From positions 15,152-54,738 of the forward strand of contig CAZEYB010000001.1 in the NCBI GenBank assembly GCA_964516165.1: a DNA stretch of 39,587 bases. Direction: 5' to 3'. The notes below the pieces were generated by a model that was not told the origin of the DNA, ran no database searches, and saw nothing but the letters and a program-made list of their open reading frames with translations. The translations under genes and the position numbers were made by a program. Shown here piece by piece: positions 6,203 to 35,528 of this stretch (the first letter of the stretch is position 1; each line of letters starts with the position of its first letter). Origin of the DNA: an uncultured Bdellovibrionales bacterium (GTDB taxonomy: Bacteria > Patescibacteriota > Minisyncoccia > Moranbacterales > UBA2206).

Positions 6203-6204
6203 AT

Positions 6205-7479: not shown

Positions 7480-7510
7480 AAATTAGTTTATTCAATTAAT
7501 TTGACAATGT

Positions 7511-10285: not shown

Positions 10286-11447
10286 TTATATTCAAAATCT
10301 TTTCCGTGAATTTTTGCCAGCTGAATTGCTTGGCCCGTTCCAGACCCCGCCGGGTCAAATCGTCGCGCAGCTTTTTTTTAACCATTAAATTTTTCATCAC
10401 CATGGCGATATCGCTCGGGTCGTTCGGATGGCAATATAAAGCGCTGTCCAATCCCACTTCAGGGAGTGAAGAAATTTTTCCCGCGATAACCGGCGTACCC
10501 GTATTCATCGCCTCTAACACCGGTAAGCCAAAACCCTCATAAAACGACGGGAAAACAAACATTATAGCGCTGGAAAACAAGACTGGCAAGTCTTTTTGCG
10601 GCACGAGATTTAAAAATTTGATTCGCTGGGTCAAATTTAATTCTCTCGCCAGCTTTTCCGCGTCAGTGATAAGCGGCGCCAGCTCGGGCATCAATTTTCC
10701 GTAAATCGCCAGTACGGGAAATTCGTCCGTGAAATATTCCTTTTTATTTTTATCTCGGAGAATTTTGTAAGCCCGAATGACGCCAGCCACATTTTTTCTC
10801 GCTTCGTAACCGCCGCCGGCCAAAATATAACCCGGCTTCAATTTATATCGGCTTAAAACCCGTTGCTTTTTACCGTCTGATATATATTTCTTAAAAATTT
10901 CGTCAGCATCAATATAATTTATCGAGATTTTTTCCGGGCTGATCCCCAGATGCCGGATCAAATCTTTTTCCGTCCGGCTGGAAATAGATATAATTTTATC
11001 AGCGTTTTTTATTCCCTCTTTCGTAAGCTTCCAATATAATTTTTTTCTGAAATTATTTAAATATTCCGGAAATAATTCCGGTATAACATCGTGGGTGATC
11101 ATTAAATGTTTTATCTCGGAACTAACTATTGTCGGGCATTGATACGGACTGATAAGATAACTGCATTTGTCTTTCTTGGCGTATCTTGGTAAAAGGCATT
11201 TTTCCCACCAAATTTTCCGGATTAAATCGTCTCGTTTCCAAAACGGCAAAAAAATTCTTTTTTTGAAGTTCTTCGGCAGTTCGAAATCTCTAGACAAATC
11301 TTCTTCCAAATATAGAATGAAATTAAATTTATCAACTTTAAACTGGCTTAGTTTTTTAAGAAAATTAAGCGTGACTTGCCCGATTCCAGTATAGGGTTTT
11401 CTGGCAAAAGAAGCGTTAATGCCGACAATTATTTTTTTATCGTTCAT
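10269..11447 (-). CDS. Glycosyltransferase family 4 (GT-B fold)
   Basis: 392 aa with SFYEGFGLPVLEAMNTGTPVIAG and GGGYEARKN. Its stop overlaps the start of the downstream ligase-like gene by 17 nt. Confidence 0.85.
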   Translation of the reverse strand: MNDKKIIVGINASFARKPYTGIGQVTLNFLKKLSQFKVDKFNFILYLEEDLSRDFELPKNFKKRIFLPFWKRDDLIRKIWWEKCLLPRYAKKDKCSYLISPYQCPTIVSSEIKHLMITHDVIPELFPEYLNNFRKKLYWKLTKEGIKNADKIISISSRTEKDLIRHLGISPEKISINYIDADEIFKKYISDGKKQRVLSRYKLKPGYILAGGGYEARKNVAGVIRAYKILRDKNKKEYFTDEFPVLAIYGKLMPELAPLITDAEKLARELNLTQRIKFLNLVPQKDLPVLFSSAIMFVFPSFYEGFGLPVLEAMNTGTPVIAGKISSLPEVGLDSALYCHPNDPSDIAMVMKNLMVKKKLRDDLTRRGLERAKQFSWQKFTEKILNIIENIV

Positions 11448-11586: not shown

Positions 11587-12822
11587 ATGGCAAAGAAACA
11601 AACCATTTGTGTTGTCGGTCTCGGCTATGTCGGATTGCCATTGGCCATCCGTTGCCAAGAAAGAGGCTATGAAACTTACGGCTTTGATTTGGACAAGATA
11701 AAAATAGCTTTAATCAAAAAAAAGAAAAATTCAATTAAGGCCACTTCGGATGAAAAAATCATTAAAAAATCCGATGTTATTCTTATTTGCGTTCCTACAC
11801 CGGTGGATAAAAATTATTACCCCGATCTCCGACCGGTGATAAGCGCCACTGAAATCATTGCCAGAAATTTGAAAAAAGGCGCCTTAGTGGTTTTGGAATC
11901 AACTGTCAACCCGGGAGTTAGCGAAGAAATAGTCAAGCCGATTTTTAAGAAGGCCGGATTTAAAGCCGGACGCGATTATCATTTGGCGCATTGTCCGGAA
12001 CGCATTAATCCGGGGGATCCCAAATGGAACGTGGCTAATATCCCGAGAGTAGTCGGCGCTCTTAATAAATTCGGTCTGGCTCTCGCTCTCAAATTTTATA
12101 AAAGCATTCTAGACGCGTCTATCCGTCCCATGAAATCCATTCGCGAAGCCGAAGCCGTGAAAATCATGGAAAATTCCTTCCGCGACATCAATATCGCTTT
12201 CGTCAATGAATTGGCTAAATCTTTTTCGCGCCTGAAAATTGACGTAAAAGACGTGATTTTAGGCGCTGCTACCAAACCTTTCGCCTTTATGGCTCATTTT
12301 CCTTCCTGCGGCGTCGGCGGGCATTGTATTCCTGTCGATCCGTATTATCTCATTGAACGGGCTAAAAAAACCGGCTTCGACCATAAATTTTTGCGGGTGG
12401 CCAGGGAAATTAATAACTCTATGCCGACTTATACGGTAGAATTGCTTCGAGAAGCGCTGAATGAAATTCGTCTGCCTATGAATGGAACCCGAATAGGAAT
12501 TTTAGGCGTAACCTATAAAGCCGATGTGGACGACGTGCGAGAATCACCGTCAATCAAAATTATGGAACTGGTCAAAAAATATAAAGCCCGAATGCTGGTT
12601 TACGATCCGCACATACCGGAAAAATCCAATGTTAAAAATTTAGTTGAACTTCTTAAAAAATCCAAAGCGTTGATCTTGGTTACTGATCATAAAGAATTCA
12701 TAAAAATTAAACCGGAGACTTTGAAAAAATACGGCGTAAAAATTATCATAGACGGAAAAAATTGTCTGGATAAGAACGCTCTAAAAAAATTAGGCATAAT
12801 ATATAAAGGCATCGGGAGATAA
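11587..12822 (+). CDS. Nucleotide-sugar (UDP-GlcNAc/ManNAc/Glc-type) 6-dehydrogenase
   Basis: 411 aa. Rossmann motif VVGLGYVGLPLA, ESTVNPG, PERINPGD, catalytic Cys in GVGGHCIPVDP, and a C-terminal UDP-binding domain GVTYKADVDDVRESP. Confidence 0.85.
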   Translation: MAKKQTICVVGLGYVGLPLAIRCQERGYETYGFDLDKIKIALIKKKKNSIKATSDEKIIKKSDVILICVPTPVDKNYYPDLRPVISATEIIARNLKKGALVVLESTVNPGVSEEIVKPIFKKAGFKAGRDYHLAHCPERINPGDPKWNVANIPRVVGALNKFGLALALKFYKSILDASIRPMKSIREAEAVKIMENSFRDINIAFVNELAKSFSRLKIDVKDVILGAATKPFAFMAHFPSCGVGGHCIPVDPYYLIERAKKTGFDHKFLRVAREINNSMPTYTVELLREALNEIRLPMNGTRIGILGVTYKADVDDVRESPSIKIMELVKKYKARMLVYDPHIPEKSNVKNLVELLKKSKALILVTDHKEFIKIKPETLKKYGVKIIIDGKNCLDKNALKKLGIIYKGIGR

Positions 12823-12919: not shown

Positions 12920-13144
12920 ATGTTGGATATCTTTAAATCCATCATTTGGATAGTGCTTCTTTTCGCCGCGGCTTACTTTGTAATGGAATTTTTAGGCTAT
13001 GAAATCAATAAAGAGTATTTCATTTACAGCCGGAAGAAATGCGAAGAAAGGCTCAAAGAATGCGGCGACAATTTCATCCATAAGGGCATAGACAATTGCG
13101 ATTTTAAATGCGTCGACCCTAAATTAATCATAAAGAAAAAATGA
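12920..13144 (+). CDS. Small single-pass membrane protein with a four-Cys tail (hypothetical)
   Basis: 74 aa. TM helix IIWIVLLFAAAYFVMEF, then KKCEERLKECG...DNCDFKCVDP (C-x7-C ... C-x3-C). No recognisable family, and coding status is supported only by position and the candidate promoter. Confidence 0.4.
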   Translation: MLDIFKSIIWIVLLFAAAYFVMEFLGYEINKEYFIYSRKKCEERLKECGDNFIHKGIDNCDFKCVDPKLIIKKK

Positions 13145-13157
13145 CTCTTTAAAAAAT

Positions 13158-14141
13158 ATGAAACTTATAATTAATATCCCGGCTTACAACGAGGAAGAAA
13201 AAATCGGTGAAACTATCACTCGAATAAAAAAAAGCTTTGAGCTAGATTTTTATTCCCGCCAAGACGCCGCCATAAATGAGAAACTAATTCAAGTTATTGA
13301 CGACGGATCAACCGACAAAACAGTTGAAATCGCTCGCGCCAACGGAGTTGATATTGTCATTTCCTATAAACCCAACCGCCGTCTGGCTTATGCTTTCAAA
13401 CGCGCCGTGGAAAGCTCCCTGGAAAAAGAAGCCGACATAATGGTCAATATTGACGCGGACGGCCAATTCAACCCGGAAGATATTCCCAGCCTTTTAACTC
13501 CCATAATCCAAGGCCGGGCCGATATGGTCATCGCCAACCGCTTCGGAAAACATAAAGCTAAAAACATTCCTTGGGCAAGAAAGATTTTGAATCTCTTCGC
13601 CTCCAATTTAATCGGATTTTTCCTAAGTTATAAAACTAACGATTTGACTTGCGGTTTTAGAGCCTTGAACCGCGAAACCATGTTACGGCTAAATTTAACC
13701 AACGTGAATTTCACTTACACGCAAGAAACTATCATTGATGCCATTGGTAAAAGTTTAAAACTTGTGTGGGTACCGGTTCTGGTGACTTATTTCGACAATC
13801 GTGACGCCAAAATCACCAAATCCATTTTCAAATTCATTAATAATTCCAGCAAAATAATTATCAAGGCCATCCGTGACGTGCGTCCGCTTAAATTTTTTGG
13901 TTGGCCCGGAATTTTTTTAGTGGCGGTGGGAATTGTCGGGTTCACGATATTCTTCTATAATTATGTTTCGGACCTAAAAATCACTCCTCATTTGAATTAT
14001 ATCGTTTTCTCGTCCATTTCCCTTCTTCTGGGAATTCAACTTCTCGTATTCGCTCTTATCGCCGATATGGTAAAATCCAGCCGGATTCTCACGGAAGAAC
14101 TTATGTATCAGTGGAAAAAGGATAAATATGAAAAAAAATAA
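13158..14141 (+). CDS. GT2 polyprenyl-phosphate glycosyltransferase (DPM1/GtrB-like, membrane anchored)
   Basis: 327 aa. INIPAYNEEEKI, VIDDGSTDKT, NIDADGQFNPED (DxD), plus two C-terminal TM helices typical of polyprenol-P-sugar synthases. Confidence 0.75.
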   Translation: MKLIINIPAYNEEEKIGETITRIKKSFELDFYSRQDAAINEKLIQVIDDGSTDKTVEIARANGVDIVISYKPNRRLAYAFKRAVESSLEKEADIMVNIDADGQFNPEDIPSLLTPIIQGRADMVIANRFGKHKAKNIPWARKILNLFASNLIGFFLSYKTNDLTCGFRALNRETMLRLNLTNVNFTYTQETIIDAIGKSLKLVWVPVLVTYFDNRDAKITKSIFKFINNSSKIIIKAIRDVRPLKFFGWPGIFLVAVGIVGFTIFFYNYVSDLKITPHLNYIVFSSISLLLGIQLLVFALIADMVKSSRILTEELMYQWKKDKYEKK

Positions 14142-15252
14142 AATACTTTTTATTTCCCGCGCTTATCCACCGATAATCGGCGGAATTGAAAATCAGAATT
14201 ACGGCATTGCTAACGCGCTTAAAAACATCGCTGAAACTAAAATTATTGCCAATAAGAGCGGCAAAAAGAATTTGCCTTTTTTCATGCCTTGGGTTTTTCT
14301 ATCAAGTTTAATAACTTTTCGCGATTATGACGCTGTTCTTTTGGGAGACGGCGTTCTCTCTCCTCTCGGAGCATGGCTCAAATTCTTTTATCCGCGAAAA
14401 AAAGCGTTGTCGATCGTGCATGGACTGGACATAACATTTGCCTGCAAAAAATCCCTTCTGGGAAAAGCCTATCGGCTAATAAATATCCCCTGTCTAAAAA
14501 AGCTTGATAGGCTCATTATGGTTGGACAGGAAACTATAAAAGAAGCCGTTAAAACCGGAATTTCCAAAGATAAATGCGTCTTTATTCCCAACGGGCTTTC
14601 TGTTGAAAAAATAGCCAAACCTCACTCCCGTTCCGAACTGGAAAAACTGATAGATTTAGACTTGGAAGGAAAAAAAGTGATTTTTCGAGGAGGCCGATTT
14701 ACTAAACATAAAGGCGTGGAATGGTTTATTCGAAATGTCATTCCGCGCCTTTCTCCAAATTATATTCTAGCGGCCGGCGGCGGCGCTATTTCGAAAATTA
14801 CGGCTGGAGACGAAAATAATTTTCCTAACTGCGTTAAAGCCGTAAAAGAGCTTGGATTAAAAGATCGCGTAAAATTATTTCCCAACATTCCTCAGCCGGA
14901 TATCGAAATTCTTTTTAACGCCTGCGACCTTTATGTTTCTCCTAATATAAAAATATACGGATCAATGGAAGGTTTTGGAATAACAGCGATTGAAGCCGGC
15001 GCTTGCGGACGAGTCGTCGTAGCCTCTAATCTTGAAGGCCTGAAAGACGCGATAATTGACGGAGAAAACGGATTTTTAGTGGAATCAGGAAATGCTGAAA
15101 AGTATACCCAAAAAATAACGGCCCTTCTGGAAGATGACGATTTCCGAAAAAGTTTCGGCGAAAAAGCCCGGCAGTATGTAATTGATAATTATTCCTGGGA
15201 AAAAATTTCCAGGAGATATTTAGAAGAAATAGAAAAAGTAATTCACAGTTAG
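14128..15252 (+). CDS. Glycosyltransferase family 4 (GT-B fold)
   Basis: 374 aa with GGRFTKHKG and SMEGFGITAIEAGACGRVVVAS (E-x7-E region). It overlaps the upstream GT2 by 14 nt. Confidence 0.8.
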   Translation: MKKNKILFISRAYPPIIGGIENQNYGIANALKNIAETKIIANKSGKKNLPFFMPWVFLSSLITFRDYDAVLLGDGVLSPLGAWLKFFYPRKKALSIVHGLDITFACKKSLLGKAYRLINIPCLKKLDRLIMVGQETIKEAVKTGISKDKCVFIPNGLSVEKIAKPHSRSELEKLIDLDLEGKKVIFRGGRFTKHKGVEWFIRNVIPRLSPNYILAAGGGAISKITAGDENNFPNCVKAVKELGLKDRVKLFPNIPQPDIEILFNACDLYVSPNIKIYGSMEGFGITAIEAGACGRVVVASNLEGLKDAIIDGENGFLVESGNAEKYTQKITALLEDDDFRKSFGEKARQYVIDNYSWEKISRRYLEEIEKVIHS

Positions 15253-15256
15253 TCAA

Positions 15257-17143
15257 ATGCTAAGTCTTGCCTTCAATCAAATATTACTCTACTTTTCCAT
15301 TGCCGTTACCATGTTCCTGCCTGGCTGGTTTTTGCTTTTGGCGGTTTTTGGAAAAAACAAGACCGTAAGCGCGCTGGAAAGATTTATTCTATCGTTCGGA
15401 CTGGGGATAATCATTACCGATTTTATCGCTTTTGCTTATTCGAAGCTTAACATATCCATCACCGGAATTTCAGCCATTATCGGAACAGCTGTTTTCTGCC
15501 TAGCTTGTCTAATTGTCTATAAATATAGGACTTATTCTGACTATCAAGATGAAAACAGAAAATTATTTTCTTTTTCCAAGAACCAGTTCGTCCTGATTTT
15601 ACTCTTATTATTCCTTACTCTTTTCATAAAAACCGCCTATCTTTCCGCCACCGTCGCTCCCACCGCCACCGATATGGGCCATCACATGTATTGGACCAAG
15701 CTGATAACCGAAAATCACAAACTCCCGGATTATGGAGGTATGCCGGATTTCATTATCGGTGAACATATCGCCTTGGCTGAAATCGCCATGATCGCTGGTT
15801 TCGATTTTTTTTCCGCTTTCCCGGTAGTCGTTCTGTTGCTTATCAATATCCTGGGGATTCTAACTGTTTTTTCCCTGACTTTAAGAATATTCAAAAATAA
15901 AAATATCGCTATTTTTACTCTCTTGTTTCTGGGAATGCTTTTTGCTATATCTTCTCCTCAAGCCAAATTCATAAGCGGCGGGGTCATAGGCAATATTATG
16001 GGAAATTATCTTCTGTCCTTGATTTTCTATTTTTTTGCCAGAGCCTTTTCAGAACTGGATGGTCTGAAATCCGCTAGCATCAAAATCCAAAGATCTTTTT
16101 TAAGTTTCGCCGTTTTCGCGACTTTCGGCCTTTTTTACACCCATCATCTCACTGCCTTTATCTTTCTCTTTATTTTCGCGTTCCTGGCATTTTTCTTCCT
16201 GACTATAAACATTAAAAACATCATAAATATATTAAAAACTTCGGCTAAAATTATATTCTCTCCGCCCGTAATCGCCACGCTTATTTTGGGATTGATATTC
16301 TTTTTCTTTATTTTCACGCCTACTTACATAAAAACCAGCGCGGTGGAAACAGCCGTTGGCGTTCCGGAAAAATCCACTCGAACCGGATTGAGTTTCAACA
16401 ATCTGAAGACCGCTGTCGGGGACGCTCGAATAACACTGGGATTCATCGGGCTCTTAATCTTGACTTTAAGCCTTAAGAAGAAAAGTTTTGGATTTTCATT
16501 GATTTTTTCCTGGGCGGTTATGATATTTATCATGTCCGCTATGCCGTATTTTCTTTTTATCAACCTTCCCAGTTCCCGCATTGGAAATTATCTGTCTTAT
16601 CCCATGGCTATTCTGGCGGCTTACGGACTGCACTATGTTTTCAATTCTGGCATAAATAATCCTATCCCTAAAAAACTCTTAAGCAGCGCCTTTATCATTA
16701 TTACCGCTTTTGTTTTCGCGAATGGCCTGTCCGACAACGCCGAGGCCTTCAAAAAATCGCCGGATTTTTCTCCGATGGTCCAGACTTTCAACGCTTCGGA
16801 ATATTTAGCCGAAAAGACGAATGCCGGCGAGATAATTTTAAAAGACCATAACTACATAACTTCGAGCGATTCATGGATCAAGCTGTTTTTTATGCGCGGT
16901 TACAAGTATCCTTTGTCGCGCGGATATTTCAGACGTTACGAAGATAAGACCAATGCTCGTGAAATGTGCACGCTCTATATGATTTCCAATCCAGACGGAG
17001 AACAGGCGAAGGTTTGCTACGAAGAAACAAAAACCGATTACATTATGATCAATCCCGTTTATGACAGCGTCCAATTCAAAAAGTTGAAAAATTTCGACCA
17101 AGTTTACATGACCGAGGAAATAGCTATCTATCATAAGAAGTAA
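15257..17143 (+). CDS. Large polytopic membrane protein, GT-C-like (uncharacterised; D-x3-H loop motif)
   Basis: 628 aa with about 13-15 hydrophobic helices and a ~150-aa hydrophilic C-terminal domain. The first long loop carries ATDMGHHMYWTKLITENHKLPDYGG, reminiscent of PTPS-related/YfhO-type GT-C membrane proteins. No firm family assignment. Confidence 0.45.
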   Translation: MLSLAFNQILLYFSIAVTMFLPGWFLLLAVFGKNKTVSALERFILSFGLGIIITDFIAFAYSKLNISITGISAIIGTAVFCLACLIVYKYRTYSDYQDENRKLFSFSKNQFVLILLLLFLTLFIKTAYLSATVAPTATDMGHHMYWTKLITENHKLPDYGGMPDFIIGEHIALAEIAMIAGFDFFSAFPVVVLLLINILGILTVFSLTLRIFKNKNIAIFTLLFLGMLFAISSPQAKFISGGVIGNIMGNYLLSLIFYFFARAFSELDGLKSASIKIQRSFLSFAVFATFGLFYTHHLTAFIFLFIFAFLAFFFLTINIKNIINILKTSAKIIFSPPVIATLILGLIFFFFIFTPTYIKTSAVETAVGVPEKSTRTGLSFNNLKTAVGDARITLGFIGLLILTLSLKKKSFGFSLIFSWAVMIFIMSAMPYFLFINLPSSRIGNYLSYPMAILAAYGLHYVFNSGINNPIPKKLLSSAFIIITAFVFANGLSDNAEAFKKSPDFSPMVQTFNASEYLAEKTNAGEIILKDHNYITSSDSWIKLFFMRGYKYPLSRGYFRRYEDKTNAREMCTLYMISNPDGEQAKVCYEETKTDYIMINPVYDSVQFKKLKNFDQVYMTEEIAIYHKK

Positions 17144-17147
17144 ATTT

Positions 17148-17507
17148 ATGCAGCAGATAAAAATTATACTATTCATACTTATCCTATTCATTGCCAGTTC
17201 TCTTTGGCTTTTTTACCAAGGCGGCAGGCAAACAGATCCCGACTTTAATAAAAACTGGTGGTCGGTTTATTTTGTTAATCCCAAATCAAATGATTTGGAT
17301 TTCGTAATTGACAACCACAGCGACAAGTCTGATTTTCAGTGGGAAGTCTTGACTGGCGGAAATAAAGTTCAGACCGGCGAACTTAAAATTAAAAAGGGAG
17401 AATCGCAAAATATAAAACCGGCTGATATTGAAAAAACAGCGGATCAAAAAATCACTATTCAAGTTTTCAGCGGCGATGAAAAGAGAGAAATATACAAGAA
17501 TTTATGA
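17148..17507 (+). CDS. Small N-terminally anchored extracytoplasmic protein (hypothetical)
   Basis: 119 aa. TM helix IILFILILFIASSLWLF followed by a beta-rich-looking domain (NWWSVYFVNP...FVIDNHSD...FQWEV). The start lies 4 nt after the stop of the upstream membrane protein gene, and the stop overlaps the next gene by 4 nt. Confidence 0.5.
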   Translation: MQQIKIILFILILFIASSLWLFYQGGRQTDPDFNKNWWSVYFVNPKSNDLDFVIDNHSDKSDFQWEVLTGGNKVQTGELKIKKGESQNIKPADIEKTADQKITIQVFSGDEKREIYKNL

Positions 17508-18616
17508 AGAAGATTTTATTAATTACTCGCCCGATTGCTCCGCCTTGGGATGAAGCTTCCAAGAACTTTGCCTATACTTTAGCGAAAAAATTGGATATAT
17601 TTGAAATATATCTTTTGACCAATGGTTTCCTCCCTGATTTACCACCGCATATCCACCAGAAGCCGATTTATACTTCCAATCAATTAAGCTACCTGCAAAA
17701 AGCAAGACTTTTAAAACTTAGGAGTTTACTGCAAAAGAATGATTTTGATATTCTTCACTATATGCTTACTCCTGCCAAGCTTAATGCTTTTTCCTTTAAA
17801 ACTTTTATAAAACCTGGCCGCGCCAAAATCATTCAGACTGTCGCCACGCTCCGGGAAGATTTATATTCCGAGAAAGAAATTAAAAACTTTTTATTTGGAG
17901 ATTTGATTGTTACTTATTCCGATTACGCCAAAAATAAACTTAACTCGCTGGGATTCGCCAATGTTAAACGAATTTATCCCGGAATTGATTTGGAAGAATA
18001 CAAAAAAACAGAAAAAAACGCGGATTTAATGAAACAAAAAAATATTGCCCAATCGGATTTTGTGATAAATTTCACCGGAGAATACACGCGGCTTGGAGCC
18101 ATCGATCTGGTAATCGATAGTTTCATTGAAATCGTAAAAATTATTCCCGAAGCGAAGCTAGCTCTGGCGGCAAGAATCAAGAACAGCGCCGATGACCGAA
18201 AGAAAAAAGAAGTGCTGGAAAAATTAAAAAAACACGATCTTCTGGAAAGAGTTTCTTTTTTTGATGATGGCAGTTATCAAATGCCGGATGTTTACAATCT
18301 TTGCGACCTAAGCCTTTTCCCCGTTTCCGATATGAAAGGAAAATTCGACATTCCCCTGGCCGTAATCGAAGCTATGGCTTGCGAAAAGCCGGTGATAATT
18401 TCCAATCTTCCAATCCTTTCTGAAATAGCCAGGCCCGACAACTCTGTTATAATAGAAAAAGGAAACATTCAAGAATTAATTCGGGCGGTTTTGGATTTAT
18501 ATCGCGATCAGGAAAAGCGAAACAGAATGGGATCGGCGGCGAGAAGTTTCGTGAAAACTAATTTTGATATAGAAAAAATCGCCGAAATATACAGTCGGAT
18601 TTACGCTAAATTATGA
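17504..18616 (+). CDS. Glycosyltransferase family 4-like (GT-B fold, divergent)
   Basis: 370 aa. C-terminal KGKFDIPLAVIEAMACEKPVIIS corresponds to the GT4 E-x7-E region with the first Glu position altered, and FTGEYTRLG lies upstream. Confidence 0.7.
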   Translation: MKKILLITRPIAPPWDEASKNFAYTLAKKLDIFEIYLLTNGFLPDLPPHIHQKPIYTSNQLSYLQKARLLKLRSLLQKNDFDILHYMLTPAKLNAFSFKTFIKPGRAKIIQTVATLREDLYSEKEIKNFLFGDLIVTYSDYAKNKLNSLGFANVKRIYPGIDLEEYKKTEKNADLMKQKNIAQSDFVINFTGEYTRLGAIDLVIDSFIEIVKIIPEAKLALAARIKNSADDRKKKEVLEKLKKHDLLERVSFFDDGSYQMPDVYNLCDLSLFPVSDMKGKFDIPLAVIEAMACEKPVIISNLPILSEIARPDNSVIIEKGNIQELIRAVLDLYRDQEKRNRMGSAARSFVKTNFDIEKIAEIYSRIYAKL

Positions 18617-20139
18617 GCCAATATAATTTCGAAAACTTATCTCTCCATAAAAAAAAGCTTCAAGACGGTTTGATGCGCGTCCCGGCTGTTTTTCATGTGT
18701 CGGAAGAGCTTATGCCCAATGACGCTACTATTGAGGAAATCCGCCAAGTCGCCTCCGATGAGCGCGTTTTCCATCATATAGCCGCGCTCTCCGATGTCCA
18801 CAGCAAGAAAGGACGCAAAAATCCGGCCGGAACGGTAATAGCTACCAGAAATTATTTTTTGCCCCAGATCAACGATACCGCCCCGAATTGCGGCATGCGT
18901 CTACTCAAGACTAATCTTACCGATTCCGATTTGGCTGGAAACAACATGGACGCTTTATTTAACGAACTGGTTGAAGTTATTCCGACTAAAGCTTATATCG
19001 GAACCAAAATCCCCTATTCTTTAGTGCTGGATATTTGCCGGGAAGGCGTGTCGCCGATAACTCGATTTTTAAAAACCCGGACTAAAAATGAGATTGAAAA
19101 CACATGGAAATCGGGAAATTTTTTCTCCGCCCAAGGCGGATCCGCCTATGGCGGAGAACGCGAAGTGACCAATCGCAAAATTTTAGACGCTATCCCGAAA
19201 TTATTTTTAAATATCGGGAGATACCGGTTGGGAATTTTAGGCGCGGCTGGAAATCATTTTTTGGATCTTATGAAAGTAACAGAAATTAAAAATTCGAAAA
19301 TAGCTGAAAAATTGGGAATTCATTCCGGACAATACATTTTTCTTATGCACACCGGCTCCGGGCTTCTCGGCCAATACGCTTCTTATTTCTACACGCCAAA
19401 AAAGAAAGAACATTTTAGCCAGCGAATTGTTCTGGAAATAGGCAAGTTCACTTTTGATTCCCAAATGAAAAAAGTTTACCATAATTTGGCTAAAAAAATC
19501 AGCCAGTATAGAAATGAGGAGGAATTTTTTGCTTATGAAGACGACAGTCTGGAAGGAAAAATGTTTTTCAGCGCCCATTGCGCCGCGGGAAATCATGGCT
19601 TTGCCAATCGAAGCGTTTTAACCCATCATTTGGATCAAGCGATAGAAAAAGTGCTGGGAAAAAACCCGGAGCTCGATCTCCTTTATGATATGCCGCATGT
19701 TTTTATTGACCGTGAAAATCATTTTGGCGAAGATGTCTGGGTGCACCGAAATAACGCTTCCCGCGCTTTCGGACCGAAAAGAATGAAAGATCATCCTCTG
19801 TTTTCCCAGACCGGAGAACCGGCTTTCATCCCTTCTTCTATGAGCACGCCGGCTTATCTCGGAGCGGGAACGGATGAAAACGAATCGACTTTTTTCTCGT
19901 CGGCTCACGGAACCGGCCGAAGAGAAATCCCTGAAAATAACATTCCCGCGAGCAAAGCCGATTTATTCGAAAAAATGAGCCATCGGCAAGTGAAACTTTA
20001 TAACGCCAAATCTAAAGGCGTCGTTCTCCAAGACGCGGGATATTATAAAGATGTTGAAGAAGTAATTTCAGGAATGGTGGAAAATAAAATCGTGAATGTA
20101 GTCGCCAAAATGGAACCGGTGGCCGTACTGATGTATTAA
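18613..20139 (+). CDS. rtcB: RtcB-family RNA 3'-phosphate ligase homologue (divergent)
   Basis: 508 aa. Ordered RtcB-like motifs: MRVPAVFHVSEEL, ALSDVHSKKG, APNCGMRL, GAAGNHFLDL, LMHTGSGLLG, HRNNASRAF, IPSSMSTPAYLG and SSAHGTGRR (position of the guanylylated His). The ATG overlaps the upstream TGA (ATGA). Confidence 0.75.
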   Translation: MSQYNFENLSLHKKKLQDGLMRVPAVFHVSEELMPNDATIEEIRQVASDERVFHHIAALSDVHSKKGRKNPAGTVIATRNYFLPQINDTAPNCGMRLLKTNLTDSDLAGNNMDALFNELVEVIPTKAYIGTKIPYSLVLDICREGVSPITRFLKTRTKNEIENTWKSGNFFSAQGGSAYGGEREVTNRKILDAIPKLFLNIGRYRLGILGAAGNHFLDLMKVTEIKNSKIAEKLGIHSGQYIFLMHTGSGLLGQYASYFYTPKKKEHFSQRIVLEIGKFTFDSQMKKVYHNLAKKISQYRNEEEFFAYEDDSLEGKMFFSAHCAAGNHGFANRSVLTHHLDQAIEKVLGKNPELDLLYDMPHVFIDRENHFGEDVWVHRNNASRAFGPKRMKDHPLFSQTGEPAFIPSSMSTPAYLGAGTDENESTFFSSAHGTGRREIPENNIPASKADLFEKMSHRQVKLYNAKSKGVVLQDAGYYKDVEEVISGMVENKIVNVVAKMEPVAVLMY

Positions 20140-20145
20140 ATAATT

Positions 20146-20751
20146 ATGAAATTAATCACCATTTCCGGACTGGACGGTTCGGGAAAGTCCACTCAAATAG
20201 AACGGCTGAAAAATTATTTAGAATCGCAGAAAAAGCGCGTTTTTTATTTCCACGCGGTTGAATTTTCTTTGGCAAAAAAATTAACTGATTTTAGAAATAA
20301 ATACTGCTTGATTTGCCAAATGACAAAAAAATGCAAAATTTATAAAGAAAAAAGCATTACACGCGCCAATGCTCTCCAAATATTTTTACGGAAAATATTC
20401 TTGCGAATTGATATTTGGCGGTTTAATTTGTTGCGTAACAAATTACTTAACAAAAATTATGATTATATTTTAAGCGATAGATATTTTTACGACAGCGTGA
20501 TAAATATAGAATATCTGTCTAATAATATTTTTCTGACATCAAATATTAAAAAGCCGGATTTGGCCATATATCTCAAAGTTTCGCCTGACATTATTATGCG
20601 GCGCCAACGGGTGCCTGATCAGGGAATTAAATATCTCAAAAAGAAAAAAGAGCTTTATGAAGCCAAAATGTCCCAATGGAATATGCGAATTATTGACGGA
20701 GATAGAGACAAAAACACCATTTTTGAAGAAATAAAAAACTTTCTCCGCTAG
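20146..20751 (+). CDS. Thymidylate-kinase-like P-loop kinase (atypical)
   Basis: 201 aa. P-loop ISGLDGSGKSTQ, DRY-type motif SDRYFYDS and a lid-like RRQR. It lacks the TREPGGT NMP-binding motif and has a basic ~50-aa insertion containing CLICQMTKKC. Confidence 0.55.
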   Translation: MKLITISGLDGSGKSTQIERLKNYLESQKKRVFYFHAVEFSLAKKLTDFRNKYCLICQMTKKCKIYKEKSITRANALQIFLRKIFLRIDIWRFNLLRNKLLNKNYDYILSDRYFYDSVINIEYLSNNIFLTSNIKKPDLAIYLKVSPDIIMRRQRVPDQGIKYLKKKKELYEAKMSQWNMRIIDGDRDKNTIFEEIKNFLR

Positions 20752-20756
20752 AACTT

Positions 20757-22241
20757 ATGTCAAACTTTTTGGTAAAATCAACCCTTTGGGTCACGCTCTC
20801 GGAAATTATTTTTAATTTGTCCGGTTTCGTGATTCATTCGGTCGTCGGGCGAATTTTAGGTCCGGCGGATTATGGCCGGTTCGGATTGGTCGTAACGCTC
20901 ACGACCATGGTCATTATTCTTATTGGGAACGGCATTCCGACCGCCATGGCCAAATACATCAGCGAAGTTTTCGATACCAATTCCGCTCTCGTAAAAATTA
21001 TTAAGCGCCAGGCGATTATTTTACAAAGTTTTATAGTCGGAGCGACTACTGTTATTTTCTTCCTAAGCGCGCCGATTTTATCTAAAATTCTCGGCGATCC
21101 GACCCTCACTCCCCTCTTTCAAATTTCTTCGCTTATTATCCCGGCCTTTGCCGCCGCGTCTTTCTATTTTTCCTATTACACCGGGCTTCACCGCTTTAAT
21201 ATTCAATCATTTCTTAAGGTTTCCCGATCGTTTTTTCGAATTGTCTTTATTATCACTTTAGCTTATTTTTTCCGAGTGAAAGGTTCTGTTATCGGCTATA
21301 TCATCGCTCCCGCTCTTGTTTTCTTTTTGGCTTTTTTGATCGATAAATTCAAAGTTTCAAAAGAAATCCGCTTGAATCCGCGTGAAATTAACTCAAATCA
21401 GCGCGATAATTTTGATTGGCGAGTTTTAGCCAACTACGCTTGGCAAATCGTCATTTTCTTTTTAGCCTACGAACTGCTGATAAGCATTGATTTATATTTG
21501 GTTAAGGGCATCCTGCGCGACGATTATCTTGCCGGTATTTACAACGGAGCCCTTACTGTCGGACGAATCCCCTATTACATTTTCTACGCTCTCACTGTCG
21601 TGCTTCTTCCGGTCATATCCAAAAGCACTTCTCAAAACAACCGCGACAAAACGGTCGGAATCATCAGTCAGACACTCCGTCTCATGCTTATTTTTCTAGT
21701 TCCGTCGGTCATTCTCATGAGTGTTTTTTCCCAGTCAATTATCCGGGTCTTTTATTCCAGCCGTTACATTGATGCCGCTTATCCGATGTCCATTCTGGTT
21801 TGGGGAGTGGGATTTCTCACTATTTTTTATGTTCTTTGTTTCGTTATGAGCGGGGCGGGAAAAATAAAAAAACCGATGTTTATTTCCATCGCCGGACTGA
21901 TTCTTAACACTCTGCTTAATTATTTTATGATAAAAAAATACGGCATAACCGGATCGGCTATCGCCACTTCAATTGCTTCCGCCGCCATTACACTCATAAT
22001 GCTTCGGGAAATAAAAAAAGATTTCAACGTTATGATTTCTTTTAAAACACTTTTGAAAACACTTTTTGCCGGCGCCGTAATTTTTATAATCGCCCGGATG
22101 CTCCCCGGAGATGGAAATATTTTTATTTTTTGGACGATTCCGCTTTTCGCCTTATATTTACTGATTCTTTATGCCATGGCGGAAATAAAAAAAGAAGATA
22201 TTTTCTTTTTAAAAAATTCGCTCAAGCGACAGCCAAAATGA
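20757..22241 (+). CDS. Wzx/MOP-superfamily polysaccharide flippase
   Basis: 494 aa with about 12-14 TM helices and the N-terminal pattern typical of polysaccharide biosynthesis (MOP) proteins (SG.VIHSVVGRILGPADYG.F). Confidence 0.7.
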   Translation: MSNFLVKSTLWVTLSEIIFNLSGFVIHSVVGRILGPADYGRFGLVVTLTTMVIILIGNGIPTAMAKYISEVFDTNSALVKIIKRQAIILQSFIVGATTVIFFLSAPILSKILGDPTLTPLFQISSLIIPAFAAASFYFSYYTGLHRFNIQSFLKVSRSFFRIVFIITLAYFFRVKGSVIGYIIAPALVFFLAFLIDKFKVSKEIRLNPREINSNQRDNFDWRVLANYAWQIVIFFLAYELLISIDLYLVKGILRDDYLAGIYNGALTVGRIPYYIFYALTVVLLPVISKSTSQNNRDKTVGIISQTLRLMLIFLVPSVILMSVFSQSIIRVFYSSRYIDAAYPMSILVWGVGFLTIFYVLCFVMSGAGKIKKPMFISIAGLILNTLLNYFMIKKYGITGSAIATSIASAAITLIMLREIKKDFNVMISFKTLLKTLFAGAVIFIIARMLPGDGNIFIFWTIPLFALYLLILYAMAEIKKEDIFFLKNSLKRQPK

Positions 22242-22263: not shown

Positions 22264-24099
22264 TTAATCGTCTTCTTTTTCGCTTTCTAAATCATCCGAG
22301 CCGCTTTCGTCAATTTCAACATTGTTATTTTTTGAATTTCCGAAAATGTCCCGCCAAAAAACCCGATCCGCTTTGACAGCCTCCGATTTAGACGCCTCGG
22401 AATTATCCGGCATGACTGCGAATTTTGGCTTTGGATTGAGGTTCTGAATTTTATAAACAGAAATTTGTCCGGCTTTTTTAGAATCCAATATCTTAACTTC
22501 CCCGAACTCTTTAAAAACGTAATCATTATTTTTTTCCGAAGGAATAACAGCAAAATACGGACCGACTGCGTCATTTTCTTTTTCAACTCTTGAAGCTGAA
22601 AGCTCGGAATCTTTTTTAAGCGAAAGCAAATATTTAACCGGTGAAAAATGCTCTTGCTTGACATAATAAACAAGCGGCGCATCCGGCTCGCGATTCTCGT
22701 ACATATAATCTACCGCCTTTTCCAGCTGCGCCAGTGTTACTCCATCTTGATTTTTCAGAATTAGCGTCCGGTTAATAGACGTATCTTTAAGCTGAGATTT
22801 TTCTTGTTCGGAAAACCAGGCCAATGTACCTTTAAGATTCATGCCGACAATAAAGGCGGTTATTATGATTGCGAGGTATTTTCCTCGCCTGCCGATCTGT
22901 TCTTTAATAAAGACAAAAATCAGGCCCAAGAAAATAAACGGCAACGGAAAAACCGGGATGAAAAAGCGCGGTCTCAGCGAAGAATACAGCGGTATGGCGA
23001 GAATATAAAAAATTCCGAACCAAGCTATTAAAAGCCAAAGAAAATTATTTCTGATCCGATCTTTATGTTTAACGATATTTCTTATCGCCAAAGCTAAACC
23101 GGCTAAAATCGTCATAGCCGCTAAAAATCCGAAAAGCCGGTTGTCTTCCGTTTTGCCTTTGTAACATTCGGAAAAGGCCACCAGGCAATAATATTTCGTC
23201 TGTTTATCCATTGACCGCTCAAACTTTACGGAAAGTTTTTTATCATTTGGTTTCGTGCTGAAAGCTTCGACAAAACTCCTGGCGTTTTCTCCTCCCCTTA
23301 TCGCATCGCTTACAACTACAGGGCTATAAACAACTAAAAGAGTAACTATAAAGACCGCGACATAAGCCAGACTTTTCTGGCTGGAATATGAACCAGCCGC
23401 TTCGGACTGCTCAATGGCATCCAATTTCTTTTTAGCAAAAATCTTTTTCCAGGGCGAAAAATGCGTTAATAAAACAAACGCGGTTATAGTCGGAAGACAA
23501 AATACGCCCAGAAAATGAAGCTGGCTTCCGACTCCGATTCCAATTGCCGCCAGAACCGCGGAGAATATCTTTTTCTTGAAATTATCCGTCCGCAAAAAAT
23601 TTAACAGCCCATAAAAATTCAGAAGAGCGAAAAATAAGAGCGAATTGGGATTCCAGGCAAACCGCGCGTATTGAATAGCGATAAAAGAAAAAGCGTACAT
23701 CAGCATTATCAGAAAAGAATTCAGTTTGGAAAAATAGAAGCGTAAAAAAAGATAAAGAAGAGGGATAGTTAGAATTGAAAAAAATAAATCCGGATAAGCA
23801 AAAACCGGCGGTTCGACCGAATTGAAAATTTTTCCGGACAGATATTGGAAATAATAATAAGCCGGTCCCAGCCGTAAAAATCCAGCCGAAACTTCAGTCG
23901 CGCCCGCCCGCGGGCCTAAAAGCGGAAGTTCGCCCGGACCGTTTTCTATGGCTTTCCCTACCATCGCCGCGTCGCGCGCCTGGTCCATTTTAAAATACAG
24001 CCAATCATGATGATTATAAGCTCGTAGCCAAAATCCGACCGCCATTACGGCTAAAATAAAGACGGCTACCGTATATTTTCGGTTAAGAAAACTTGGCAT
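22264..24099 (-). CDS. GT-C glycosyltransferase, ArnT/PMT_2-like, paralogue 1 of 6
   Basis: 611 aa. FWLRAYNHHDWLYFKMDQARD, LGPAYYYF, AYPDLFFSILTIPLLY, ARFAWNPN, GSQLHFLG and a C-terminal soluble domain ending GQISVYKI plus an acidic tail. Confidence 0.65.
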   Translation of the reverse strand: MPSFLNRKYTVAVFILAVMAVGFWLRAYNHHDWLYFKMDQARDAAMVGKAIENGPGELPLLGPRAGATEVSAGFLRLGPAYYYFQYLSGKIFNSVEPPVFAYPDLFFSILTIPLLYLFLRFYFSKLNSFLIMLMYAFSFIAIQYARFAWNPNSLLFFALLNFYGLLNFLRTDNFKKKIFSAVLAAIGIGVGSQLHFLGVFCLPTITAFVLLTHFSPWKKIFAKKKLDAIEQSEAAGSYSSQKSLAYVAVFIVTLLVVYSPVVVSDAIRGGENARSFVEAFSTKPNDKKLSVKFERSMDKQTKYYCLVAFSECYKGKTEDNRLFGFLAAMTILAGLALAIRNIVKHKDRIRNNFLWLLIAWFGIFYILAIPLYSSLRPRFFIPVFPLPFIFLGLIFVFIKEQIGRRGKYLAIIITAFIVGMNLKGTLAWFSEQEKSQLKDTSINRTLILKNQDGVTLAQLEKAVDYMYENREPDAPLVYYVKQEHFSPVKYLLSLKKDSELSASRVEKENDAVGPYFAVIPSEKNNDYVFKEFGEVKILDSKKAGQISVYKIQNLNPKPKFAVMPDNSEASKSEAVKADRVFWRDIFGNSKNNNVEIDESGSDDLESEKEDD

Positions 24100-24112
24100 A
24101 AAATATGTATGA

Positions 24113-24141
24113 ATTATAGTTTATTTCGGCCGTATTCGCAA
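24113..24141 (-). promoter_or_regulatory. Candidate internal promoter for paralogue 1 (TTGCGA-17-TATAAT)
   Basis: On the minus strand, TTGCGA lies at 24141-24136 and TATAAT at 24118-24113 with a 17-nt spacer, inside the 51-nt gap between paralogues 2 and 1. It implies a very short leader. Confidence 0.3.
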
Positions 24142-24150
24142 AGCTGATTA

Positions 24151-25932
24151 TTAATCCTCATCAAGGGTTATTTCACTCCAGTTATACCTTTTTGGACCGC
24201 TTGATTTTGATTGCCTATCATCAAAGATCTTATAATCGTCGGTAATCGCCTCTTCTTTGGGAATGAGTTTTAAAACCGCTAAAGTCCCGAAATTTTTTAT
24301 TTCGGCGATATCATAAAAAGATTCTTCTTTTTTTCCTATTTTGTATTGATTGTCCGGCTTTCTATAATCCACCCAAAAATAATTAACATAACGGTAAATT
24401 TTATCATGGTTGATTCTGTCGTTAAAAAGAACGTTCTTCCGCTCAAAAATATAGGCTATCGCCGACACATAGCGCGTTTCTCCGTAAAATAAAATAGGAT
24501 ATCCATTTTTTTTCTGATTCTCCATCATATATTCGGCGATTTGTTTTTCTTGCGAATAAGTAACGCGCGTTTTTTCTTTAAGTATCGAATCATTTTCTAT
24601 TTTAATATTATTTTGGCTCGCGCCAGCCAGTTGGAAAAATCGGCTGGCGGCTTCTTTGCCGTTGGAAAAAATAAGAACAGCCAAAACCATCGCGGGAATA
24701 ATGTAATCCAAATAATATTTTTTCGATATTGTCTCAAAGATAAGACCGAGAAATATAAAAGGCATGAACGCGCCCAGAAGGAAAAAACGCGGTGAAATAG
24801 AAAGCGCTAAAGGCGTAAAAATAGCGAATGAGATAAAAAAGAAAGTCCCATTCAGGAAGAGAAAATCTTTTTTAACGGAATCGGTTTTCCTTTTCCATCG
24901 CAAAACAAGCAATGAAAACCCTGACACCAAAAACATCGCGCTTATCAATCCGAGATAATAATCCTGCGGGCAATCGTTTTCATCACATCGCCGAAAGTAG
25001 CTGGCGATTCCATTCAAATTTAACCCCAAAAGACTGTTACCGTCCCTTCCCGAAAGCATCAAAAAATATCCGGCGGAATGTTCTTTTAGATTCAGAAAAA
25101 CTTTTTTGGCCAAACCGGCTTCGTTTTTTTCAGACTTATCCGTAATCGCCCCAAAAAACTGCTCGGTATTATCTCCCCCGGTCATGGTTTCATTTATAAA
25201 AACCGGGGCATAAAACAGCAAGGCGGATAAAATCGCGAGGCTCCAGACAATTAATTTTAATTTCGGACGTTTTACGAGTAAAAAAATAAAAAACACAATA
25301 GGCAAAATTATAAACGCCAAAAAATGCAACTGCGTGGAAATGGATAAAGCGGCAAAACTTATTATCAGCCAGATATTTCGCCGTTTTTCGCCCGTATCGA
25401 CAGCGCGCAACATCGCGTAAAAAGATAAAGGCACGAAGAACACTAAATAATTAGGATTCCAAGCAAAACGGGAATAAACAATCAGGAAAGCGGAAGCTCC
25501 CGCGAGAAACACCAGAATAATTGAAATCTTTTTATCAAAGTAGCGCCGAAAATAAAGATAAAAAATAGGCAAAGCCAAAACAGAAAGCACTAACACTCCG
25601 CTAGCAATTCCCGGCGGCGTGTTTCCGGAAACTTTCGCGCTTAAATATGAGAGGTAATAAAAAGCCGGTCCGAGACGTAAAAACGTCCCCTGCGCCCGCG
25701 GACCCAGAAGCGGTAAATTGTTTATTCCGCCAATTACAGCTTCGGACACGACTTCGGCATCGCGCGCCTGATCAAGCTCAAAATGCAGCCAATCGGAAAA
25801 ATGATAAGACCGTAAAAATATCGCCAAAACCATCATTCCAAGAAATAAGAACCGAAAAAGGTTTTTCTTGTTCAAAATCCGGGCTTTATTTTTCTTTGTC
25901 TCTATCTTATGATTCAAAGTGTCGTTCTCCAT
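24151..25932 (-). CDS. GT-C glycosyltransferase, ArnT/PMT_2-like, paralogue 2 of 6
   Basis: 593 aa. FLRSYHFSDWLHFELDQARD, LGPAFYYL, SRFAWNPN, STQLHFLAF and a C-terminal domain with NFGTLAVLKL. The start overlaps the upstream metallopeptidase gene by 26 nt. Confidence 0.65.
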   Translation of the reverse strand: MENDTLNHKIETKKNKARILNKKNLFRFLFLGMMVLAIFLRSYHFSDWLHFELDQARDAEVVSEAVIGGINNLPLLGPRAQGTFLRLGPAFYYLSYLSAKVSGNTPPGIASGVLVLSVLALPIFYLYFRRYFDKKISIILVFLAGASAFLIVYSRFAWNPNYLVFFVPLSFYAMLRAVDTGEKRRNIWLIISFAALSISTQLHFLAFIILPIVFFIFLLVKRPKLKLIVWSLAILSALLFYAPVFINETMTGGDNTEQFFGAITDKSEKNEAGLAKKVFLNLKEHSAGYFLMLSGRDGNSLLGLNLNGIASYFRRCDENDCPQDYYLGLISAMFLVSGFSLLVLRWKRKTDSVKKDFLFLNGTFFFISFAIFTPLALSISPRFFLLGAFMPFIFLGLIFETISKKYYLDYIIPAMVLAVLIFSNGKEAASRFFQLAGASQNNIKIENDSILKEKTRVTYSQEKQIAEYMMENQKKNGYPILFYGETRYVSAIAYIFERKNVLFNDRINHDKIYRYVNYFWVDYRKPDNQYKIGKKEESFYDIAEIKNFGTLAVLKLIPKEEAITDDYKIFDDRQSKSSGPKRYNWSEITLDED

Positions 25933-26332
25933 TTACCTTTTTTAGATTAGTTTTCCTTCTCGCTTCCAATCGGCGCACTTCGTTTTCATTCATGCCAAAA
26001 TGATGCGCGATTTCGTGCCAGACTGTGTTTTTCACTATTTCTTTGATATCCTTGACATCGCGCGCCGCCTGCTCAATCGGTTTCTGGAAAATCGTTATTT
26101 TATCCGGAAGCACCGAACCGTAATGAGACCCTCGAGATATCTGCGGCACGCCTTCGTAAAGGCCAAAAAGCGTCCATCCGCGACGAAGATTTAATTTCCT
26201 TATCTGCGCCGGCGCTGGTTCATCTTCAACAACCACGGCCACATTGTCCAATTTCCGCAAAAAGCGTTCCGGAATAGCCGCTACTCCCGCTTCTACCATA
26301 TTCCTAAATTCCGTCCGGGTTATCTTCCGCAT
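25907..26332 (-). CDS. Zincin_1 (DUF1025-type) metallopeptidase family protein
   Basis: 141 aa. VVVEDEP, LFGLYEGVP and the HExxH zinc motif in WHEIAHHFG are characteristic of the small cytosolic Zincin_1 family. Confidence 0.7.
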   Translation of the reverse strand: MRKITRTEFRNMVEAGVAAIPERFLRKLDNVAVVVEDEPAPAQIRKLNLRRGWTLFGLYEGVPQISRGSHYGSVLPDKITIFQKPIEQAARDVKDIKEIVKNTVWHEIAHHFGMNENEVRRLEARRKTNLKKVNGERHFES

Positions 26333-26345
26333 ACATAATATGTAA

Positions 26346-27953: not shown

Positions 27954-27966
27954 ATTAATATTTGAG

Positions 27967-29619: not shown

Positions 29620-29626
29620 TAACTTT

Positions 29627-35126: not shown

Positions 35127-35528
35127 ATGAAAAAAATCGAAAGAAAATACCTTATCGGCGGAGGTATAGCAGTTGTCGCACTCGTTTTAATCGCGGGTAT
35201 TATGATTAAGCAAAAGAGGACTGTCAAGCCAGCGCCCTTGGTTAAGATTACCGGCGAGATTGGATCAATTTCAAACGATAAATCGTCGATAACCGTAAAA
35301 ACGGAAATTATTACTTATACGGCCAATATGGCCGCGGTAAAAACTTTGAAGAACAGCGCGGGAGAAAAGATCTCCATAGATGATATTAAGACTGGAGATA
35401 AAATTGAACTGCGCACCAGAACTAATATCGAAGGCGGGAAAATCACGGAAATCAACGTGTATTCGCTCAAGGATCTTTCTATTTCAAGCTCCGATACTGG
35501 CGCGAAACTAGAGACAACCGCTTTATGA
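35127..35528 (+). CDS. Small N-terminally anchored extracytoplasmic protein (hypothetical, possibly DUF5666-like beta domain)
   Basis: 133 aa. TM helix GGGIAVVALVLIAGIMI followed by ITGEIGSISNDKSSITVKT...DDIKTGDKIELRT. There is a 4-nt overlap (ATGA) with the downstream GT-C gene. Confidence 0.45.
   Translation: MKKIERKYLIGGGIAVVALVLIAGIMIKQKRTVKPAPLVKITGEIGSISNDKSSITVKTEIITYTANMAAVKTLKNSAGEKISIDDIKTGDKIELRTRTNIEGGKITEINVYSLKDLSISSSDTGAKLETTAL

Follow-up and report, generated by a model that had tools for sequence, protein, structure and literature searches.

What is a homologue of the RNA ligase RtcB doing in the middle of an operon of glycosyltransferase genes? The question is raised by an open reading frame (ORF) of 508 codons located at positions 18613 to 20139 of the plus strand of a 39,587-nucleotide stretch of DNA (hereafter the window; assembly GCA_964516165.1, contig CAZEYB010000001.1, positions 15,152 to 54,738). 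The genome (0.73 Mb, 89 contigs, 93.6% complete) is that of a Moranbacteria-like member of the candidate phyla radiation (CPR), and the nearest homologues of the encoded protein carry the names Candidatus Moranbacteria or Parcubacteria. To our knowledge, no role other than that of a nucleic-acid ligase, in transfer RNA (tRNA) splicing, XBP1/HAC1 splicing and RNA repair, has been described for RtcB, and the envelopes of CPR bacteria are almost unstudied. On balance, we favour the reading that this protein is an RtcB-fold enzyme neofunctionalised for the cytoplasmic phase of a Wzx/Wzy-type envelope glycopolymer pathway, and that it does not serve RNA splicing or repair. We infer this from sequence comparisons, and the substrate proposed below is a guess.

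The protein is a real but divergent RtcB. The earlier note on this DNA, which proposed the RtcB assignment from the letters alone, had left room for the absence of a significant RtcB profile match, and such a match is present: the protein hits the Pfam family PF01139 with an E value of 2.3e-65 and 221.9 bits (cut-off 27), covering positions 2 to 424 of the 426 of the profile, and the RtcB of Pyrococcus horikoshii (PhoRtcB; PDB 1uc2) with an E value of 1.8e-38. An AlphaFold2 model, built with 66 orthologues as input, reached a predicted local distance difference test score (pLDDT) of 90.6 and a predicted template-modelling (TM) score of 0.91, and its significant matches in the PDB were RtcB structures only (4dwq, TM-scores of 0.80/0.84 at 26% identity). 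The NCBIfam RtcB equivalogs were not reached (90.4 bits vs 407 for NF007153; 58.1 vs 271.8 for TIGR03073). The protein has a helical insertion of about 30 amino acids after the HTGSG motif, at residues 268-299. We have named the subfamily to which the protein belongs MY, for its C-terminal end (...VAVLMY); in public records, the MY-type proteins are labelled 'tRNA-splicing ligase RtcB'.

Two minor features of the protein can be added. The sole low-confidence segment of the model (pLDDT <50) is a Gly/Ser-rich loop, QGGSAYGG (residues 174-181; window 19132-19155), which is missing from most orthologues and is therefore a lineage-specific insertion. Many MY-type orthologues, including those of the loci L006 and L007, give a weak match to the Pfam family PF25891 (Hl_ALG44), and the protein of the window gives none at an E value of 0.01.

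To define which catalytic residues are kept, a census was made of 121 members of the MY subfamily (45-81% identity to the query) aligned with canonical RtcBs; residues are numbered here as in PhoRtcB, with the number in the window's protein in brackets. Asp65, His67, Cys98, Asn202, His203, Phe204, His234, His329, Arg350, His404 and Tyr451 are kept in 115 to 121 of the 121 sequences. The nucleophile His404 (His432) and Asp65 (Asp61) are invariant in all 121, as are across the orthologues the ligands of the first metal site (M1), i.e., Cys98 (Cys93), His234 (His246) and His329 (His362), and the Asn202-His203-Phe204 triad corresponds to Asn214-His215-Phe216. His432 is predicted to be the covalent acceptor of a nucleoside monophosphate (NMP).

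The changes concern other parts of the active site. In PhoRtcB, M1 is held by Cys98, His234 and His329, and the second metal site (M2) by Asp95, Cys98 and His203; Lys480 reads the guanine O6, Glu206 reads N1/N2, and Asn330 touches the gamma-phosphate (PMC9745838). In the MY subfamily, the M2 pair has retained His203 and lost Asp95, which is Ala (Ala90) in 112 of the 121 sequences, and an invariant Asp (Asp88) precedes this position by two residues, the length of the loop being unchanged. Glu206 is replaced by Asp (Asp218), Arg238 by Gly (Gly250) and His242 by Gln in every sequence, and Asn330 by Val, Ile or Leu, also in 121/121 (Val363 in the window's protein). Lys351 has become Asn (Asn380) in 119, Ser385 has become Ala in 103, Arg412 is mostly Pro (85/121), and Lys480-Gly481 is Met-Tyr (120 and 114 sequences, respectively), Lys480 corresponding to Met507.

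Several of these residues are known to matter for RNA ligation. The PhoRtcB mutants D95A, E206A and K480A are each inactive without archease, and nothing but archease rescues E206A and K480A (PMC3973293). The E. coli RtcB needs the 6-oxo group of the purine (PMC3458531). Arg238 contacts the 5'-OH strand at its first two phosphodiesters, to which it binds; mutation of its E. coli equivalent (R189A) makes sealing 200-fold slower (PMC8051266). The combination of Glu206 changed to Asp and Lys480 changed to Met suggests that the specificity for guanosine triphosphate (GTP) has been given up. Taken as a whole, the census shows a protein that has kept the machinery for forming a covalent His-NMP and the M1 site. 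Under purifying selection, it has lost a ligand of M2, the residues that read guanine and the clamp on the polynucleotide.

The earlier note had already pointed to altered metal or GTP-site motifs. The ORF is indeed open, with LSDVHSKKG, NDTAPNCGMR, VHRNNASRA, IPSSMSTPAY and SSAHGTGRR in this order, and NDTAPNCG does hold an Ala at the position of Asp95, with Cys98 kept. The reading of two other motifs needs correction: SDVHSKKG keeps both Asp65 and His67, and HRNNA, equivalent to His349-Arg350-Lys351, contains no metal ligand; the ligand His329 lies in YDMPHV and is kept. Three fixed replacements come in addition to those it listed, namely Asp for Glu206, Gly for Arg238 and Met-Tyr for Lys480-Gly481. 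Thus, the full conservation of catalytic residues that would have spoken for an ordinary RtcB is not observed; Asp95, Glu206, Arg238, Asn330, Lys351 and Lys480 are all changed, and these changes are fixed in the 121 orthologues.

The usual partners and substrates of an RNA ligase were also searched for. Of 201 genomes sampled from the class, 14 carry a MY-type RtcB (45-60% identity, E values of 1e-143 or better), and none of these 14 encodes an archease or RtcA; both are likewise absent from the genome of the window. No second RtcB was detected in this genome or in 13 relatives, which settles, for this genome, the suggestion of the earlier note to look for another rtcB or an archease. The tRNA genes of the genome contain no introns, so that tRNA introns are ruled out as substrate. 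The control came from within the class: the sister CPR genomes G086, G003 and G080 each encode a canonical RtcB of about 480 amino acids directly after an archease, and one of the three also has RtcA; therefore, classical archease-RtcB operons do exist in Patescibacteria.

Some observations on these and other genomes of the class are worth recording. In two of the three control loci (L041 of G086, L043 of G003 and L044 of G080) the archease-RtcB pair lies just downstream of a Mur-ligase gene, with a NIF3/DUF34-like or DUF763 gene downstream. Two or three tandem RtcB-like ORFs of 460-560 amino acids, sharing 23-28% identity with the query, occur in the genomes G082 (contig C13), G005, G049 and G111 (contig C1 in each), and G035 has a 1002-codon open frame that matches RtcB in its C-terminal part only and possibly encodes an intein-containing RtcB. 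In the genome of the window, the ribosomal RNA (rRNA) operon is split over contig ends, and the rRNA genes are present as fragments only: C8 ends with the start of the 16S gene and C34 with a 23S fragment, the 5S gene lies close to the end of C2, and C13 begins with the spacer tRNA-Ala/Ile.

The genetic context of the RtcB-like gene is the second line of evidence. The gene belongs to a plus-strand operon that encodes, in this order, a dehydrogenase, a 74-amino-acid protein, glycosyltransferases of families GT2 and GT4, a DUF6541/DUF1616 membrane protein, a 119-amino-acid protein, a second GT4 enzyme, the RtcB-like protein, a Tmk-like P-loop kinase (TmkL) and a Wzx flippase. As the earlier note had described, the ATG of the RtcB-like gene overlaps the TGA of the preceding GT4 gene (GT4b; 17504-18616; PF00534, E value 3.6e-20) in an ATGA at 18613-18616. 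Its TAA ends at 20139, and a gap of 6 nucleotides separates it from the ATG of the TmkL gene (20146-20751; 201 amino acids), which is followed by the last gene of the operon, encoding a Wzx/MurJ-type polysaccharide flippase (20757-22241; PF01943, E value 9.5e-25; also PF03023 and PF13440). Matches to promoter and terminator consensus sequences around rtcB and inside the operon are at chance level when compared with shuffled sequence (29 vs 27.2 and 14 vs 13.1).

This arrangement is conserved. The 14 carriers of a MY-type RtcB are all eight sampled genomes of the order plus three genomes each of two other families. Three orthologues located on long contigs (67-72% identity) show the same order from the dehydrogenase to Wzx; in one of them, 4 kb of additional DNA separate RtcB from the kinase. 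Throughout the order, in all eight genomes, RtcB, TmkL and Wzx either lie side by side or are 1.5-3 kb apart, and the GT4-RtcB(-TmkL-Wzx) arrangement is conserved in all eight as well as in two of the three genomes of another family. The 4-nucleotide overlap between GT4 and RtcB recurs in L002 and in the distant L045. Within family f61, genome G077 keeps the block from the dehydrogenase to GT4-RtcB, with TmkL-Wzx 35 kb away, G106 has RtcB 3 kb downstream of DUF6541, and G179 shows the order GT4, racemase, RtcB. Hence, the non-conserved synteny that the earlier note would have taken as a sign of chance placement is not what is found: the GT4-rtcB-kinase-wzx order holds in relatives, and the link with glycan genes extends to distant branches.

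The genes of the module also share their distribution. Orthologues of the DUF6541 protein are present in 15 of the 201 class genomes, namely the 14 carriers of a MY-type RtcB and, in addition, G157, in which the cluster is cut by a contig end. TmkL orthologues occur in exactly the same 15 genomes. The co-occurrence of RtcB, DUF6541 and TmkL agrees with a single module.

A quick IQ-TREE analysis of 62 RtcBs places the MY subfamily in a wider frame. In this tree, the members of the canonical clade have all functional residues intact, and a non-canonical clade of 49 sequences (Shimodaira-Hasegawa-like approximate likelihood ratio support of 99) lacks Asp95, Asn330 and Lys351, and mostly Arg238. 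The MY subfamily (19 sequences, support of 100) is nested in the non-canonical clade beside P0127, P0133, P0135 and P0136. The neighbourhoods of this clade contain genes for GT4 enzymes, Wzx or MprF-type flippases, often together with a Tmk-like kinase, with two exceptions (P0147 and the MY-type family f46) that are weighed below. In L036, an LPG_synthase_TM gene precedes RtcB, accompanied by a GT4 gene, a B12/radical S-adenosylmethionine (SAM) enzyme and a Tmk-like gene. L037 and L038 encode a GT4, a methyltransferase, a radical SAM enzyme, LPG_synthase_TM and RtcB, and at a greater distance a polysaccharide deacetylase as well as a GT2. Two GT4 genes and a two-component system come before RtcB in L040; the overlapping GT4-RtcB pair of L045 is divergent from a UDP-sugar (uridine diphosphate sugar) dehydrogenase gene; and L047 shows the order methyltransferase, RtcB, Wzx.

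Some members of the MY clade have degenerated further. A sub-branch inside it (support of 100) includes P0124, P0125, P0130 and P0128. The first three have Ser in place of Asn202, and their HGxGR motif has become HE(I/L)GK. P0124, in which this motif reads HEIGK, remains in an identical ten-gene operon (L034). P0128, on a branch of length 1.22, has replaced His404 by Tyr, Asp65 by Ser and His203 by Pro, and has lost Asn202. This protein is full-length, and its gene is still located directly upstream of Wzx and beside PMT_2 genes (L035).

The kinase encoded next to the RtcB-like protein does not look like a housekeeping enzyme. TmkL (PF02223, E value 1e-10) keeps the P-loop GLDGSGKST, the DRY motif and a basic lid, RRQR, and contains a basic, Cys-containing insert in place of the segment that binds thymidine monophosphate (dTMP). 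Its nearest solved structures are thymidylate kinases (E values of about 6e-8). A canonical Tmk that scores better is encoded elsewhere in 10 of 13 relatives; TmkL is a paralogue of the housekeeping Tmk and no substitute for it. The idea that TmkL is an ordinary thymidylate kinase, packed here as a housekeeping gene, was rejected on account of this separate and better Tmk and of the score of TmkL, which falls below the cut-off of the dTMP-kinase equivalog (TIGR00041, 37.7 bits vs 83). In this genome TmkL is the sole PF02223 match above cut-off; the genome has either lost its housekeeping tmk or carries it in the ~6% that the assembly lacks.

We favour recruitment over chance packing because archease has been lost and residues individually essential for RNA ligation carry fixed changes while the His-NMP core is kept, and because the linkage with GT4 and flippase genes recurs despite rearrangement across a deep clade, with degenerate copies persisting in the operon. 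The non-RNA use of the RtcB fold that the earlier note had raised as one of two options is thus supported by the residue changes together with the conserved synteny. On the model of steps 1-3 of RNA ligation, His432 would be charged with an NMP from a nucleoside triphosphate (NTP), whose base is probably not read as guanine any more. The acceptor of this NMP would be a phosphomonoester, carried by a sugar or a lipid-linked glycan or belonging to a polyprenyl/lipid phosphate; the transfer would yield R-O-P-P-nucleoside, and the adjacent TmkL may install that phosphomonoester. The activated product could either be released or be attacked by a hydroxyl, giving a phosphodiester and the NMP. A kinase paired with a nucleotidyltransferase is a common salvage module.

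A broader proposal, possible rather than probable, extends this to the whole non-canonical clade. Its members may be NTP-dependent His-NMP ligases or activators of sugar/lipid phosphomonoesters, and thus the first enzymes of the RtcB fold whose substrate is not a nucleic acid; they would make phosphodiester (or nucleoside diphosphate-activated) links in envelope glycopolymers and would be fed by a dedicated Tmk-like kinase; the pocket of the MY subfamily would have moved off guanine, and one sub-branch would have become a non-catalytic subunit.

The rival that survives best, which we nevertheless consider unlikely, is that the protein is still a nucleic-acid 3'-phosphate/5'-OH ligase, the only RNA-repair ligase of the genome, carried in a packed operon, its substitutions having arisen by drift towards another NTP or another mode of holding RNA. 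Some points favour it, and some weigh against recruitment to the glycan pathway. The protein is the sole RtcB of the genome and might have a housekeeping role in RNA repair, and about one quarter of the class genomes keep a canonical RtcB, so that RNA ligation is valued in the group. Together with the nucleophile, Asp65, the M1 ligands and His203, the subfamily retains Asn202, the anchor of the 5'-OH, while an invariant Arg at the position of Gln194, which might replace Arg238, and the basic loop HSKKGRK, which is invariant and follows Asp61/His63 of the window's protein, could bind nucleic-acid phosphates. In family f46, the three genomes retain the orthologue although it is unlinked from the glycan cluster, as in the GreA-CofD-RtcB arrangement of G134, and P0147 (L046) has no glycan neighbour. 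Unrelated genes do mix in CPR operons, and the pattern shared by RtcB, DUF6541 and TmkL might merely mark one clade. Finally, the genome contains four PF00483 genes (canonical NTP_transferase/sugar-phosphate nucleotidyltransferase), and a new route to nucleotide sugars is not obviously needed. For the same reason, the RtcB-like protein was discarded as a stand-in for missing sugar-phosphate nucleotidyltransferases.

Other observations speak against an RNA ligase. Each of the substitutions D95A, E206A and K480A abolishes ligation by PhoRtcB without archease, and archease is absent here; the Arg238 clamp is lost in 121/121 orthologues; there are neither tRNA introns nor RtcA; and the canonical RtcBs of the CPR are paired with archease instead. 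In addition, the linkage with GT4, Wzx or other flippase genes recurs in distant subclades with differing gene orders, and catalytically dead descendants hold their position in the operon.

A side observation concerns the f46 orthologue of G134 (L030, 3770-6301), which lies directly after a gene of the CofD/YvcK family, maybe by coincidence. CofD proper moves a phospho-alcohol from a guanosine-diphospho donor and releases guanosine monophosphate, a reaction formally the same as step 3 of RtcB.

We regard as improbable a further explanation in which the enzyme nucleotidylates a protein side chain or the phosphate of a nucleotide or cofactor, giving a signalling or modified-nucleotide product for the pathway: the retained His-NMP core, the remodelled base pocket and the nucleotide-kinase fold of the neighbouring kinase would suit it, but nothing points to it specifically, the neighbours being glycosyltransferases and flippases and not signalling proteins. 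Least probable of all is a non-catalytic or regulatory subunit, i.e., a pseudo-enzyme or nucleotide sensor that scaffolds or gates a cytoplasmic glycosyltransferase/flippase complex, which would fit the translational coupling to GT4 and the full-length P0128-type relatives beside Wzx and PMT_2 without His404, Asp65, Asn202 and His203, but the invariance of the nucleophile and of all M1 ligands over 121 MY sequences is the signature of retained catalysis, and P0128, on its long branch, may be a late loss.

Compared with known systems, the protein resembles the canonical RtcBs (P. horikoshii PH1602, E. coli RtcB and human RTCB) in its fold, its full-length PF01139 match, its nucleophile and its M1 site, and differs from them in the replacement of Asp95, Glu206, Lys480, Arg238, Asn330, Lys351 and Arg412, in the insertion of about 30 amino acids, in its sub-equivalog scores, and in a glycan operon as its location, with no archease, RtcA or RtcR. 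The archease-RtcB 'tRNA splicing operon' is found in archaea and in many bacteria, including bacteria of the same class, and encodes a protein homologous to ours at the level of the ligase family; unlike it, the 14 genomes with a MY-type protein are without any archease. The chemistry proposed here is achieved by the GalT-type His-NMP sugar-1-phosphate nucleotidyltransferases and by the phosphodiester routes based on cytidine diphosphate (CDP)-alcohols or CDP-diacylglycerol. This is analogy and not homology; the folds of those enzymes are unrelated to that of the RtcB-like protein.

If the favoured reading is true, RtcB chemistry would extend to the phosphates of glycoconjugates or lipids, a new step would be added to the synthesis of cell-wall polymers in the CPR, and the 'tRNA-splicing ligase RtcB' names given in public records would be affected. 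A search of the full-text literature, whose coverage was partial and which can give only absence of evidence, found no account that links RtcB to Patescibacteria/CPR, to clusters of glycosyltransferase or polysaccharide genes, or to LPG_synthase_TM.

The remaining genes of the operon, all on the plus strand, lie upstream of GT4b. The first gene of the glycan cluster (11587-12822) encodes a nucleotide-sugar dehydrogenase of the UDP-ManNAc/GlcNAc type (N-acetylmannosamine/N-acetylglucosamine; TIGR03026, E value 1.5e-115) with the N-terminal, central and C-terminal UDPG_MGDP_dh domains of Pfam, and it occupies the same position in L002, L004, L006, L032 and L034. The small 74-amino-acid ORF (12920-13144), taken from the ORF listing, has a hydrophobic N-terminus and a Cys-rich tail, and its counterparts are genes of 76-78 codons that precede GT2 in L002, L004, L006 and L034. 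The GT2 enzyme (13158-14141; PF00535, E value 7e-21) is similar to AglJ and polyprenyl-phosphate hexose transferases (TIGR04182 AglJ, E value 6.3e-36, under its cut-off), and it is followed by the first GT4 glycosyltransferase (GT4a; 14128-15252; PF00534, E value 1.2e-32). The next gene (15257-17143) encodes a polytopic membrane protein of 628 amino acids with DUF6541 (PF20176, E value 6.1e-9) and DUF1616 (PF07760, E value 3e-8) matches. The 119-amino-acid protein (17148-17507) has no Pfam or NCBIfam match, and genes for proteins of 117-124 amino acids are found in the matching position in L002, L004, L006, L032 and L034.

Upstream of the operon, a divergent minus-strand cluster (5372-11447) encodes a GT4 (10269-11447), a Wzy_C O-antigen polymerase/ligase-like protein (8660-10285), a second GT4 (7511-8659), a LytR-CpsA-Psr (LCP) ligase (6205-7479) and a GT2 (5372-6202). 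The whole locus resembles a Wzx/Wzy pathway in which the LCP enzyme would link the product to the wall; a gene for an initiating phosphoglycosyl transferase was not noticed within the window. The other flank is an array of PMT/PMT_2 paralogues (ArnT-like enzymes of the GT-C type) that occupies positions 22264-35000 of the minus strand and 35525-37405 of the plus strand. A Zincin_1 peptidase gene (25907-26332) is nested in this array, which is followed by a GtrA gene (37421-37852) and a GT2 gene (37879-38847).

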